Counted from the first letter of the stretch, positions 45,577 through 53,790 are shown. The stretch: DNA of 64,000 bases from Pelagomonas calceolata (GCA_918797485.1 CAKKNE010000002.1:5146001-5210000); one strand, 5' to 3'. A program made the numbers and translations. The notes: generated by a model from the sequence alone, not told the origin.

Positions 45577-48434
45577 ATGGCGGCACTCGCGAAGCCCGAC
45601 AAACAAAGACTACCAAAAAAAGAGGCCGAGACCTTCAAGAACATCGTCAAGTTCTACGAGACGAAGCAGTACAAGAAGGGCCTGAAGGCCGCCGACCTCG
45701 TCCTCAAAAAACACCCCGAGCACGGCGAAACTTTAGCAATGAAGGGCCTCGTCCTGAATTGTTTGGATCGGAAGACGGAGGCCTACGACCACGTCAAAAA
45801 AGGTCTAAGGGCGGACATGCGGAGCCACGTGTGCTGGCACGTCTATGGGTTACTTTATAGGAGCGATAGGAACTACGAGCAAGCTATTAAGAGCTATAAG
45901 CAGGCCTTAAAAATTGATTCTGATAACGTGCAGATTCTCCGGGATCTATCCTTGCTCCAAGTGCAGCTGCGGGACACGCGCGGCTTCTTGGAGACTAGGA
46001 GGCGACTGCTCACGCTGAAGTCGACGAACAAGATGCACTGGATCGCGTACGCTGTTGCTAATCATCTCGATGGGAAGGGTAAGGAGGCGATCAAGGTCAT
46101 CGACGCCTACGGCGAAACGGTCAAGGAGGAAGGCAGGGAGCGGAATTACGAGAATTCCGAATTGGCTCTATATCGGAATTTACTGTTGGAAGAAAGCGGT
46201 AAGTATGACGAAGCGTTGGACCATTTAGATGCTTGTAAAAGTGTAGTAGTCGACGGCTTCGGCTGGCGGAAGAAAAGGGCGGAATTATTGCTGTATGCCG
46301 GTCGGCGCGGCACTACCAGCACAGGTGTCTTGGATAGGAATGAAGCCGTGAGAGCGTGGGTGTCGCTCATAAGGCAACCGGTGGGCGCGGACAACTACCA
46401 CTTCCACCGCGGGTTGCAGTGCGCTTTGTTGGAAGTAGATGCGACGAAATGCCTCGAGCTCATGAGAGAAAAAGCGACGCGCACGCCGACCGATGTGTTG
46501 GTATTATCAGATACACAAGTCACGCTGTTAGACGACGCCTATTCAACCTTAGCTTCCGAACAACCGCGCGCGGACGCGTTTGCCTGGCTGCCGCTGACCT
46601 ATTGTCCCGCGGGTCCGTCCTTCGACGCGCAGCTCGATGCGTTCTGCCGACGGTTTATAAAAAGAGGCGCGCCGGCTCTAGGAAGCGCGCTCGAAAGGTT
46701 GTGGGCCCCTCAACCAAATGATGTCGTCGAGGGCCGGTGTCGCGGTTCGCAGTGCTGTCGGAAGGTTCTGGACATGGCAAAAACGCACGCCGCGGCACTT
46801 TCGTCAAAAAGTACCTTCGCCAACGGCGACGCTACCACACCGACGAGCGAAGCCTGGGCGTTGTATTTACAAGCCCATTGTCTGGAGTGGCTCGGGCAAT
46901 TGGACGAGGCCATGGCTGTGATTGATCGAGCGATAGCACATACGCCAACAGCCGTCGACTTCCCGGAGAAGAAGGCTCGACTCCTCAAGAAGGCCGGTCG
47001 TATTAAAGATGCAGCGGAGATGATGGACACCGCCCGAAAATTGGATTTGGCGGATCGGTACATCAATAATAAATGTACAAAGTACATGTTACGAGCCGGC
47101 AACGTTGACGACGCCCGAGCCACGGCGGCGTTATTTACTCGCGAAGAGGCCGGTGAACCGGAGCAGCATCTGAGAGATATGCAAGCCTCCTGGTATGAAT
47201 TGGAGGTTGGTTCAGCATTGGCGCGGCGCGTGACAACCGGCACACCAGCAGAATTGCGGGAGCTAGCTGGCCCGGCGCTCAAACTGTTTCTGAGCGTAGA
47301 AAAGCACTTCAGCGACTTCGTCGAGGACCAGTTCGACTTCCACACGTACTGCGTGCGCAAGATGACTCTTAGAGCGTATGTATCTGTTTTGAAGCTGGAG
47401 GATAACATACGGGGGCACAAGGCCTTCGTCAAGGCTTGCGTCCAAGCCGCGGAGCTCTACTTATTGCTACACAAGGCCGACTCGGCGGAAGTCGCCAACT
47501 GTGTGGAAATCAACCAGTGCGTCGGGTGCTCGGCGATGACGCGGCCGTGCCGGCTCCGTCGAGCGGTGACGAACCGGCACCGCCACGCCATCGAGCAGGC
47601 GTCGCGTCGATGGCGTGGAGGACGACGCGACGGTTCAGCACGAACGCGCCGTAAAATTTGATTTCCACACAGGTCGCCAAGCCCCAGGAAGCCGTGGACC
47701 CGAAGCTCGCCAAGGCCTTGGCCAAGAGAGAAAAGGCCAAGGCAGCGAAGGCGAAACGCAAGGCTGAAGCTGACGCCAAGGCTCAGGCCGAAGCCGCGAA
47801 AGAAGCCGCGAAAAATGATGACAGTAAAAAGAAGCTGCCGAAACGCGACGCTGATGAAGATCCGAAAGGAGAGAAATTAGCCGCGCTCGAGCCGTTGAAG
47901 GAGGCTACTAGACTATCCAAAGCATTGGAGAAGTACGCGGCATCTTCCGTAGAGACGCACGCGCTGGCCTTCGACGTGTCTATGGTGCGGGCCAAGCCGT
48001 TGTTGGCGCTCCGCGCGTTGCGACGATTATCAAAACAGAGCGACCAGCGGGCCTTCGTCGTGCGGTTGGCGCGGCTGACGCAAGCGCGGCCGGCGATGAC
48101 GTTAACGGCTACGGTCGCTTCAGTGCTCGACGCGGAGCTGAAGGACTTGTTGTCTGGTGGTGACTGCGTCGCGTTTTTGCGCGGATTCGCGGCGCGGCGG
48201 CCCTTGCTCAGGGACCGGAGCGCGGCGGCGCGGGCGCTGCACGTGCTCGGCGCCTCGGACCCGTCCCTGATTTTGCGGGCCGACGCGGCGGACCCAGATA
48301 TGGCGAAGCCACTGCCGGTCCGGGACTTCGAGGACGCGCTGGCGACGCTGCGGGACGGCGACGGGGCCGCGGCGGGGACGTTCCGGGAGGAATGTCAGAG
48401 GAGGTTTCCCGGCGCGGACTTCCTCCTGAAATAA
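45577..48434 (+). CDS. NAA15: NatA auxiliary subunit; intron 47491-47672
   Basis: YETKQYKKGLK, HGETLAMKGL, SHVCWHVYGL, AIAHTPT, DLADRYIN, DQFDFHTYCVRKMTLRAY. Confidence 0.96.
47491..47672 (+). mobile_element. Introner intron, GT-AG (most intact copy)
   Basis: Perfect TSD GTCGCCAA (47491-47498 and 47673-47680); perfect 15-bp TIR CTGTGTGGAAATCAA/TTGATTTCCACACAG. Confidence 0.95.
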
Positions 48435-51725: not shown

Positions 51726-53790
51726 TCAGCGGCGGTCGTCGTACTCGCGCCGCCGGTCCCGGTAGTCGTCGCGCGGCGGAGACCGGTCCCGCGGCGGCGA
51801 CCGGCCCCGGGGCGGCGAGCGCCGCCGGTCCTGGTAGTCGTCGCGCGGCGGCGACCGCCGCCGGTCGTCGTAGCGGTCCCGGCGGTCGTAGTCGTCCCGC
51901 CGGTCGCGCGGCGGCGACCGCCGCCGGTCGTAGCGGTCGTCGCGGCGGTAGTCGCGGTCGCGCGAGTCGTAGCGCGGCGGCGAGCGCCTGTGTGCGGAGC
52001 GTGAGTTTCGTGGCTCCCGGTGGGACTCGAACCCACAATCTTCGCCTTAGGAGGGCGACGCCTTGTCCATTAGGCCACGAGAGCTATGAGTACAGACACC
52101 GCAGCACACCGTCTCGGCGGCGACCTCCGCCGGTCGTCGTAGCGGTCCCGCGAGTCGTAGCGCCGCCGCGGCGACGGCGAGCGGCCGCGGCGCCCAAAGT
52201 TCGGGTCCCAGCCCGACGCGTTCGGGTCGTGGCTGTAGCGGCAGGACGCGCCGCGCGTGCACCTGCGATGGATGCGCGGTGACGTTCCCTCCTCCCAGAA
52301 CGACGCGGCTCCCGGGTCGACGACGGCTCTCGGCGGGACTCGAACCCGCAATCTTCTCCTTAGGAGGGAGACGCCTTGTCCATTAGGCCACGAAAGCTTC
52401 TCAGATAGTTTGAAGGGGCTCCCGGCGGGACTCGAACCCGCAATCTTCGCCTTAGGAGGGCGACGCCTTGTCCATTAGGCCACGAGAGCGCTTCATGAGT
52501 AGAGACGCCGTATACCGCACCTTCCTTTCATGAAGTCGAAGCACACCTGGTCGTCGAAGCGCGCCCGAGGCGCGTTGTACCCGTCGGTCGTGATGCCGCC
52601 GGTGATGTCCTCGGCGCGCATTTTTCCGCGTTTTTCGTCGAACACTTGCACGAACTGCACGGTGTCCCCTTCGCGCAGGGCGTTGCCGTCCATGATGGCC
52701 GACACGTGGCAGAAGAGGTCCTCGCCGCCGTCGGGCTGCGGTGGGGGAATGACGCGTCAAGTTTTTGCTCGCGTGACCGATACGTGATTCGAACACGTAA
52801 CCTTCAGGACTGGAATCTGACGCGCTACCGTTGCGCCAATCGGTCAATGTTCACGTGTATGCATCCGGTGGGGTTCGAACCCACGCCTCCGAAGAGATTG
52901 GGGCTTAAATCCAACGCCTTAGACCAACTCGGCCACGGATACAAAGTGAACGGTCCGAGGACTCGTGATGATGGTGGGGTTCGAACCCACGCCCGAAGAC
53001 TGGTGCCTAAAACCAGCGCCTAGGGTCGCTCTTGCGAGCTTAGACCACTCGGCCACATCATCAACGTGCGCGATAGTGACAGGGTTCGAACGCGCATCGA
53101 TCTCGGTCAGAGAATCGATCCTGCGACCCTTACGGGAGTAGATTTCAAGTCTACCGCCTTAACCACTCGGCCACACTATCTTGCAACAAAGTCCAGGTAC
53201 CGCGGTGAGACCGATGCGGGAGTCGAACCCGCGACCTTCAGATGATTTTCCAGTCCATATCAGGTGAATGTGTGTGCGAGCGCCTATCCTCGGCGGGATT
53301 CGAACCCGCAACCCCCGGATTAGAAGTCCGATGCGCTATCCGTTGCGCCACGAGGATGGAGGCGACTCAACTCCGACGGGACTCGAACCCGCAACCCCCA
53401 GATTCGAAGTCTGATACGCTATCCATTGCGCCACGGAGTTAGGTGTGTGTTGGTGGAGGAGCAGGGGTTTGAACCCTGGGCTTTCCGCATGCAAAGCGGA
53501 CGCTCTGCCACTGAGCTACACCCCCTTTGAATACAGGACGCGGTAAAACGCGCCGGCTTGATGAAGCCAAACCCCCTATCGTTCCAGCGGCAGGCCGTGC
53601 CCGTGACGCGCTCGCCCGTTCCGTCGCCGATCTTGCCGCGCGTCGGCGAGCGAGAGGGACCGCGGCGCGGCGAGCGGCCGCGCGGCGGCGACCGGCCGCG
53701 CGGCGGCGACCGCGAGCGGCCGCGCGGCGGACTGCGGCCGCGCCCTGGGCTGCGGCCTAGGCCCGGGGGCGAGCGGGATCGGCTCGCCAT
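51726..53790 (-). CDS. RS/RD-rich cold-shock-domain + CCCH zinc-finger RNA-binding protein; exons 53790-53554, 52735-52521, 52262-52110, 51987-51726; tRNA host gene
   Basis: Spliced frame GTACRWNDRGFGFIKP|PDGGEDLFCHVSAI..LREGDTVQF (CSD); CFDFMKGR|CTRGASCRYSH (CCCH); RSPP repeats; intron 1 is GC-AG, introns 2-3 are GT-AG; phases consistent. Confidence 0.88.
52012..52084 (-). tRNA. tRNA-Arg(CCU), in intron 3
   Basis: GCTCTCG..TCGCC CT CCT AA GGCGA..GTTCGAGTC..CGGGAGC. Confidence 0.95.
52325..52397 (-). tRNA. tRNA-Arg(CCU), in intron 2
   Basis: Cloverleaf; TCTCC CT CCT AA GGAGA with a compensatory stem change. Confidence 0.95.
52417..52489 (-). tRNA. tRNA-Arg(CCU), in intron 2
   Basis: Cloverleaf near-identical to the 52012 copy. 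Confidence 0.95.
52774..52845 (-). tRNA. tRNA-Trp(CCA), in intron 1
   Basis: GACCGAT TGGCGCAACGGTAGCGCG TCAGA TT CCA GT CCTGA..GTTCGAATC..ATCGGTCA. Confidence 0.92.
52860..52942 (-). tRNA. tRNA-Leu(UAA), in intron 1
   Basis: TTGGA TT TAA GC CCCAA; long variable arm. Confidence 0.9.
52966..53062 (-). tRNA. tRNA-Leu(UAG) with 19-nt D-loop intron (53022-53040)
   Basis: CTGGT TT TAG GC ACCAG; removing the insert restores GAGTGGTCTAAGGCG. Confidence 0.88.
53071..53180 (-). tRNA. tRNA-Ser(UGA) with 29-nt T-arm intron (53091-53119)
   Basis: GTAGA CT TGA AA TCTAC; variable arm; removing the insert restores GCAGG TTCGAAC CCTGT. Confidence 0.88.
53208..53256 (-). tRNA. Orphan tRNA 3' half (positions 38-73) with short leader; fits the tRNA-Trp 5' half
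   Basis: ATCTGAAGGTCGCGGGTTCGACTCCCGCATCGGTC-T; no adjacent D-arm or 5' acceptor strand. Confidence 0.7.
53285..53357 (-). tRNA. tRNA-Arg(UCU)
   Basis: ATCCTCG..TCGGA CT TCT AA TCCGG..CGAGGAT. Confidence 0.94.
53368..53440 (-). tRNA. tRNA-Arg(UCG)
   Basis: AACTCCG..TCAGA CT TCG AA TCTGG..CGGAGTT. Confidence 0.94.
53454..53525 (-). tRNA. tRNA-Ala(UGC)
   Basis: G3:U70; TCCGC TT TGC AT GCGGA. Confidence 0.93.

Follow-up and report, generated by a model that had tools for sequence, protein, structure and literature searches.

Does a transfer RNA (tRNA) 3' half that stands alone upstream of a complete tRNA-Trp gene belong to a split or permuted tRNA, or does it act in some other way? The question is raised by the minus strand of a 64,000-nt stretch of the Pelagomonas calceolata genome (GCA_918797485.1 CAKKNE010000002.1:5146001-5210000; hereafter the window), in which a preliminary description had pointed out an orphan 3' half with a leader antisense to the anticodon loop of a nearby tRNA-Trp. 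Our analysis indicates that the orphan is constrained as RNA structure. We tentatively read it as a conserved Trp-like clamp that is not spliced, that would sit on the Trp 5' half and that would likely provide cut sites for RNase Z and RNase P; we give this reading a probability of about 0.45.

Compared with the 3' half of the Trp gene itself, the orphan has different bases at 9 of 36 positions. It is intact and has no 5' half beside it, as had been described: ARAGORN made no call on it and Rfam matched only 18 nt of its T-arm. The anticodon-stem strand TCTGA (53242-53238) and the acceptor strand (53215-53209) pair with Trp as previously reported, and position 73 (53208) is T. The leader at 53256-53248 is the exact complement of 52815-52807, which are Trp positions 32-40, and the next 5 nt are AATCA; folding further pairs leader 53265-53262 with Trp 44-47. 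From position 73 to the Trp start (52845) there are 363 nt, and three tRNA genes, Ser(TGA), Leu(TAG) and Leu(TAA), are nested there, again in agreement with the preliminary description. Matches to the acceptor 7-mer in the window are at chance level (9 observed, 9.35 expected). Co-folding of the orphan gained 17.6 kcal/mol with Trp, compared with 1.4-6.9 with eight other tRNA genes of the window. The orphan is specifically complementary to the Trp 5' half by the combination of its strands, not by the 7-mer alone.

Metagenome contigs were scanned with the Trp 5' half, which gave 119 loci among the matches listed, the number of stretches being estimated at about 180. The orphan was present in 18 of the 66 loci with a Trp gene of the pelagophyte clade (17 contigs; L003 and L004 overlap), in addition to the window. 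Among these 19 rows there were 11 distinct strings of leader plus core and nine distinct cores, and the 13 rows with the intron start on the locus had seven distinct host exon ends, the window's included. Identity among the nine cores was 1.00 at positions 39-45, 0.95 at 66-73, 0.77 in the T-stem strands and 0.53 at 46-48; in the 24 nt farther upstream of the leader it fell to 0.26, the chance level. All nine cores carried U73. The invariant parts of the orphan face invariant Trp bases, and the single acceptor change, C72T (L026, L064 and L036), leaves a G.U pair. The Trp 5' half followed 136-363 nt downstream in 18 of the 19 rows (L057 ends earlier), and an intact orphan stood upstream of all 16 Ser genes with sufficient sequence (17 Ser genes examined).

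Covariation across relatives, a check proposed in the preliminary description, was seen in the T-stem. All 65 cells were paired, which none of 500 shuffles reached, a control that related sequences with few independent events can beat; both sides had changed in three of the five pairs (49-65, 50-64 and 52-62). No broken copy of the orphan was found via a structure-blind anchor. The orphan's six T-arm variants were not shared with any further tRNA, either in the 119 loci or in the window, and the orphan drifts more than the neighbouring translated tRNAs. Given this structural constraint and conservation, the orphan is not a decayed gene, and the decayed intron-containing Trp gene that had been named as the refuting case is set aside.

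A related explanation is that the orphan is a non-functional remnant of a Trp gene duplicated on a mobile tRNA array, the pairings being upheld by gene conversion or template switching of near-inverted repeats. Tandem or degenerate Trp copies do occur in the arrays (L026, L064, L075 and read joints), the array is found in several host genes, the orphan has been cleanly lost from four loci, and one contig, L036, resembles a template-switch product. We nevertheless regard a remnant as quite improbable in view of the three compensated T-stem pairs with no unpaired cell, the T-arm variants absent from other tRNAs, the sharply patterned conservation beside a spacer of chance identity, and T39 and U73, which are fixed in the orphan and differ from Trp.

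The fixed T39 and U73 would also be accounted for, together with the non-Trp T-arm, if the orphan were the 3' half of a split or permuted tRNA other than Trp with its 5' half elsewhere in the genome; in the window the T-stem is identical to that of the neighbouring Arg genes. This origin is very improbable in our estimation. On the same strand, neither the window nor the 119 loci contained a further matching 5' half, the leader keeps GG opposite Trp C39-C40, beyond a cut at 37/38, and the translated tRNAs of the arrays show less drift than the orphan's T-arm and variable region. A covariance model of the 3' half itself, applied to the window and to 84 of the 119 loci, gave no further orphans; past two training members its hits scored at most 43 bits and were tRNA genes, by position mainly Trp and Arg 3' halves. 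Degenerate 3'-half patterns had no match in viral contigs and none in prokaryote genomes.

It is also conceivable that Trp is uninvolved, and that the orphan is a self-contained tRNA-like element in the style of t-elements or mascRNA, the leader giving the acceptor and anticodon-like strands, or an extra B-box. By inspection, the leader can form a short hairpin with TCTGA and 4-6 of 7 acceptor pairs, the orphan folds on itself at -9 to -18 kcal/mol, and its T-loop retains what we take to be the B-box consensus; the hybrid with Trp is missing in L097. These self-folds vary between copies, however, and a varying leader next to a fixed acceptor strand and TCTGA fits an invariant external partner, while a B-box in DNA has no need of pairs 49-65 and 50-64. 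We hold a self-folded element to be decidedly improbable.

The preliminary description had proposed that the Trp 5' half is joined to the orphan. A circularly permuted or trans-spliced Trp of this kind would be cut after Trp 37 and before orphan 38 by the splicing endonuclease, ligated as a circle with the Ser and Leu genes, and opened by RNase P and by tRNase Z. The order of 3' half, spacer and 5' half is the one expected, and the anticodon stem of the product would be fully paired. Orphan A38 (11/11 variants) and the presence at -3 of a purine that could pair with U32 are invariant, which plain complementarity also explains. The lineage splices non-canonical bulge-helix-bulge (BHB) introns, like Cyanidioschyzon merolae in the sections of PMC3978253 on its tRNA genes. 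The junction itself does not bear the proposal out, and we consider joining rather unlikely.

At the 37/38 junction four of four central-helix pairs formed in none of nine leader-Trp pairs, and at least three of four in one. No conserved BHB or helix-bulge-helix (hBH) was found in the type II test of the junction. By comparison, among 27 distinct canonical introns in the Trp genes of other eukaryotes, 24 had at least three of four pairs in the right register, and the lineage's own Ser 53/54 and Leu(TAG) D-loop introns have the full central helix at the frequencies given in Table 1. A strict BHB needs 5 nt from the G facing C34 to T39; the relatives have 2, 3, 4 or 7 nt, and the commonest gap, 2 nt, makes a continuous helix. 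The 5-nt bulge described at 37/38 is present but peculiar to the window. A junction scan across Trp 27-66 found no position at which a central helix coincided with flanking helices. The signals that it gave at 50 and 54-60 were rejected as self-complementary G.U runs and the T-loop TCGA palindrome, which have no flanking helix, and a role of the leader as anticodon loop was rejected on anticodons and loop sizes that differ between copies.

The product of joining could form all cloverleaf pairs, with C46 in 2/9 cores and C48 opposite A15 in 2/9. Its U73, present in 9/9 cores, stands against A73 in 59/59 Trp 3' halves, and the nine cores in 19 rows stand against two main variants that make up 53 of those 59. 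A73 is an identity element of tRNA-Trp. RNA reads came from three poly(A) runs of one sample. Over Trp, at a depth of several hundred, they contained two ordinary Trp variants and, among the loose-end groups listed (53 others), no orphan letters at 1%, a weak test in poly(A) libraries, from which tRNAs and circles are lost. The spacers of 136-363 nt compare with 1-74 nt in Table 1 of PMC3978253.

The other role previously suggested, that of a folding or modification guide, survives in part. A folding guide is close to the clamp that we favour; a box C/D modification guide is unlikely by spacing. In box C/D guides the target is the fifth base upstream of the CUGA box. The corresponding spacing varies by up to 5 nt among the orphans, the fifth base facing C35, C34, U33 or nothing, and an Rfam scan of the window gave no snoRNA match.

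The mismatch at 31-39 in the window's Trp gene had been taken as an argument for joining. The mismatch is real, but position 39 is C in 125 of 129 hits, T in one and unreadable in three, with a search pattern that fixed A31, and 36 of the 125 C39 hits are intron-bearing Trp genes from other eukaryotes. The A31.C39 mismatch is the normal state of the Trp family and does not speak for joining. Because reads on the window's Trp continue into flanks that are mixed (the largest groups agree at 0.5-0.66) and tandem Trp copies are seen in DNA and RNA reads, there are many Trp genes in the genome. Trp is complete in all arrays except L036 and present in many copies, and therefore nothing obliges the cell to assemble it from halves.

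Some further observations concern Trp genes. An intron-less Trp gene that is nearly identical, with one acceptor pair altered, was found in L060, L092 and L112; the flanks in L060 are AT-rich, unlike the algal loci, and possibly belong to a virus that infects these algae. In L039, L052, L076 and L090, which hold Trp genes with introns from other eukaryotes, there is an apparent second insertion in the T-arm that starts with GTAAG and is possibly a spliceosomal-type intron within a tRNA gene. The spacer between Arg(TCT) and Trp in L064, L070, L075, L096 and L046 copies six of the seven bases of the Trp 5' acceptor strand, and the 3' acceptor strand of Trp, when free, could pair with this copy; a comparable spacer was seen in read joints from another locus of the window's organism.

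The exception among the arrays deserves separate mention. In L036 an orphan with the most divergent T-stem lies upstream of a Trp 5' half that ends after position 40 and lacks its own 3' half. Over about 30 nt the trailer of this half forms a duplex with the L003/L077 leader (-55 kcal/mol), interrupted by one mismatch and a single 1-nt bulge and with no BHB, and the duplex includes a perfect 14-mer seen in no other locus. This arrangement agrees with a permuted or split Trp. As a single contig, L036 is either a completed permuted or split layout, or the product of template switching or a chimera assembled from near-inverted repeats. On a broader view, a permuted layout with one to three whole tRNA genes in the spacer, set within a spliceosomal intron, might give pelagophytes a tRNA or else a tRNA-like RNA of two pieces that is stable; the orphan and the Trp 3' half would be alternative partners for a single 5' half. 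We think this unlikely, though worth stating for its consequences: L036 would then represent the completed permuted state, and the RNA would be the first permuted tRNA in stramenopiles, with joining that needs no BHB or with no joining at all.

We now return to the clamp. In folding from the leader to the end of Trp, orphan 39-43 paired with Trp 27-31 at a probability (P) of at least 0.95 in 14 of 15 spans, and the native acceptor stem of Trp reached at most 0.06 in all 14 measurable spans. A second helix, between strands h1 and h2 (Table 1), is predicted around Ser and Leu(TAG). h1 follows U73 and h2 follows the last intron-bearing gene; 11 of 13 distinct pairs beat their shuffles (at most 8/300), and both strands have changed in the window relative to other loci.

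From these features a sequence of events may be proposed. The orphan, transcribed first, would capture Trp 1-7 and Trp 27-31, with Trp 32-40 covered by its leader, and h1/h2 would close the Ser/Leu segment and draw the two halves together. The hybrid would then offer an acceptor stem, a D-arm and a T-arm, the features read by RNase P and tRNase Z. If cuts were made behind U73 and ahead of Trp G1, the Ser and Leu genes would come free in one piece; with introns in the T-arm and D-loop these would be poor substrates before splicing. The long helix without a bulge, in place of an anticodon loop, would keep the splicing endonuclease off, and the same orphan-Trp helix would tether the two parts of the host intron after the cuts; the Trp copy might then come free by refolding. 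RNase P external guide sequences form comparable two-part pre-tRNA-like substrates. Human tRNase ZL, according to the part of PMC2691602 on its targets, cuts RNAs that offer a 5'-half tRNA a 7-nt acceptor complement and a 3-5-nt anticodon-stem complement with a T-arm, and the passages of PMC3978253 on C. merolae report that introns in the D- and T-arms block end processing and that the acceptor stem and T-arm are what RNase P and tRNase Z recognize. All 19 rows with an orphan have the 7-nt acceptor complement, the anticodon-stem complement and the T-arm between them (with G.U at 1-72 in three). We favour the clamp because every orphan has the features of a tRNase ZL target and because D- and T-arm introns delay end processing.

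Several points weigh against this reading. The orphan copies are related, so that the counts are not of independent events, and every locus was retrieved via the Trp 5' half, so that the co-occurrence of orphan and Trp is built into the sample. Four loci without an orphan (L028, L068, L079 and L109) retain Leu(TAG) and the h1/h2 helix; in these, Arg(TCG) stands immediately before h1 and Ser is missing. Conversely, L003/L077 retain the orphan without Ser. The leader base opposite Trp 38 is paired in arrays with T38, compared with one of six leader types in arrays with A38. For the hybrid acceptor stem, P was at least 0.6 in only 11 of the 15 spans; it was 0.03 in the 512-nt span of the window itself, in which the model misfolds the nested tRNAs with one another, and in L097 the hybrid did not form at all; the energy models moreover omit tertiary contacts and modifications, which favour native tRNAs. 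The clamp also looks partly redundant, as cuts at the upstream Arg and at Trp itself would free the same segment.

The locus in which the orphan lies is eukaryotic DNA. For a NatA auxiliary subunit encoded in the window (45577-47658), the nearest named relatives, at 58-60% identity, come from Chrysophaeum taylorii, Pelagophyceae sp. CCMP2097 and Aureococcus anophagefferens; still closer relatives stand at 78% and 96%, and the source is accordingly a pelagophyte. The minus strand carries ten tRNA genes from 53525 to 52012, of which ARAGORN recovers eight, without Ser and Leu(TAG); genes of such intronic arrays are overlooked by standard tRNA finders. Seven of the ten, with the orphan, are contained in one intron with GC/AG ends, a setting that the preliminary description had not mentioned. 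Its splicing is seen in poly(A) reads that stop at 52736 and resume as letters of exon 1 (126, 74 and 54 reads), and the reading frame is uninterrupted over the splice. We take the spliced frame to encode a cold-shock domain and, after it, the beginning of a zinc finger. Between the window and L097 the host's cold-shock exon shows 86% identity, and an exon at 52680-52736 is common to paralogous cold-shock genes in reads and DNA contigs. T4 runs occur twice in this intron, ahead of the first gene and within the Leu(TAG) anticodon, and none is found past Trp. The second intron, with two Arg(CCT) genes, was skipped in 233, 145 and 75 first-mate-plus reads of the three runs.

Table 1. Features of the tRNA-bearing locus in the window and of the L036 half gene.
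Feature	Position	Strand	Basis
Orphan tRNA 3' half, positions 38-73 (anticodon-stem strand, variable region, T-arm, acceptor strand, U73)	53208..53243	-	
Leader of the orphan	53244..53266	-	loosely kept in relatives
tRNA-Trp(CCA), complete, ordinary; 5' half is the predicted partner of the orphan	52774..52845	-	gene call, comparison, folding
h1, upstream strand of predicted helix around Ser/Leu(TAG)	53189..53203	-	duplex with h2 -18.2 kcal/mol; 2/300 shuffles as strong
h2, downstream strand of enclosing helix	52948..52964	-	folding
tRNA-Ser(TGA), 29-nt BHB-type intron at 53/54 (53119-53091)	53071..53180	-	central helix 4/4 in 17/17 copies
tRNA-Leu(TAG), 19-nt BHB-type intron in D-loop (53040-53022)	52966..53062	-	central helix 4/4 in 22/23 copies
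tRNA-Leu(TAA), intron-free in the window copy	52860..52942	-	tRNA gene call, comparison of loci
tRNA-Arg(TCT)	53285..53357	-	tRNA gene call
tRNA-Arg(TCG)	53368..53440	-	tRNA gene call
tRNA-Ala(TGC)	53454..53525	-	tRNA gene call
GC-AG spliceosomal intron, 818 nt, of cold-shock-domain gene, whole array inside	52736..53553	-	reads, open frame
tRNA-bearing introns of the window	53553-52736; 52517-52259; about 52100-51990		two with splicing shown
Trp 5' half without 3' half, then trailer	L036 1887-1945		

Archaeal-type tRNA introns are, as judged from their sequence, present in a stramenopile nucleus. The BHB introns of Ser(TGA) at 53/54 and of the Leu(TAG) D-loop were also found in L026, L036, L045, L057, L059, L064 and others, with compensated changes in the intron stems. 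Some copies of Leu(TAA) have a D-loop insertion and others do not; the four Leu(TAA) introns did not match a BHB at the assumed cut site, the one register tried, where the central helix had 0-1 of 4 pairs.

Sense tRNA genes in spliceosomal-type introns were seen in many unrelated host genes (L001, L002, L012, L021, L035, L043, L054, L055 and others). Single-tRNA introns in L001, L002 and L021 seem, by eye, to be closed by short stems around the tRNA that differ in sequence from copy to copy. A shared intron-start motif lies within 60 nt of 32 of 72 clade Trp genes, and in 18 of these 32 a matching motif also precedes a YAG no more than 90 nt downstream; the motifs form inverted repeats of each other. 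The tRNA-carrying introns look like a mobile family, of the kind termed introner-like.

The combination of sense tRNAs in spliceosomal introns with archaeal-type introns in the T-arm and D-loop, in abundant marine algae, is apparently undescribed. Our literature search, which was incomplete and excluded supplements, found nothing on pelagophyte nuclear tRNA genes or tRNA-bearing introns and nothing on natural half-tRNA guides for RNase P. The main text of a 2026 review of the tRNA genes of photosynthetic organisms does not mention pelagophytes (PMC13578239).

Among known systems, the type II (37/38) permuted tRNA genes of C. merolae, prasinophytes and the B. natans nucleomorph share with the orphan an upstream 3' half on the same strand and a leader that pairs with the anticodon region; their hosts, like the orphan's lineage, have non-canonical BHB introns, and the layout fits the duplication model of their origin (PMC3978253, in its sections on permuted genes). 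As characterized there, permuted genes have a BHB formed by leader and trailer, a spacer of 1-74 nt and a circular intermediate. The orphan, in contrast, has no conserved BHB and carries U73, its 5' half retains its own 3' half, and its longer spacer holds whole tRNA genes inside a spliceosomal intron of a stramenopile. On two defining features, the BHB and the absence of outer halves, it fails to fall within permuted tRNA genes; in its presumed mode of action it comes nearest to the two-piece tmRNA, to mascRNA and t-elements, and to half-tRNA-guided targets. The split tRNAs of Nanoarchaeum and other archaea, as presented in parts of PMC3218864 and PMC3978253, find a parallel in the complementarity of the L036 trailer and the L003/L077 leader; they differ in the junction BHB, which is missing here, the parallel is confined to a single contig, and the partner elsewhere is a complete gene. 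The two-piece permuted tmRNA, in the account given in PMC3978253, is closer in that a tRNA-like domain is formed, unligated, from a downstream 5' strand and an upstream T-arm and acceptor strand; the orphan is nuclear and eukaryotic, has no reading frame and would take its 5' strand from an intact tRNA gene. With the 5'-half targets of tRNase ZL, as set out in part of PMC2691602, the orphan shares acceptor and anticodon-stem complements around a T-arm, which together make a two-part pre-tRNA-like substrate. It differs in that both partners lie in one precursor and a conserved array, in its anticodon-masking leader, and in that its cleavage is a prediction. Finally, like mascRNA, menRNA and the t-elements of plant mitochondria, in the coverage of PMC4919922, the orphan is predicted to serve as a tRNA-like cut signal for RNase P and RNase Z without a part in translation; whereas those elements are local folds of a single stretch, its 5' half would be lent by a genuine tRNA gene that lies hundreds of bases off.

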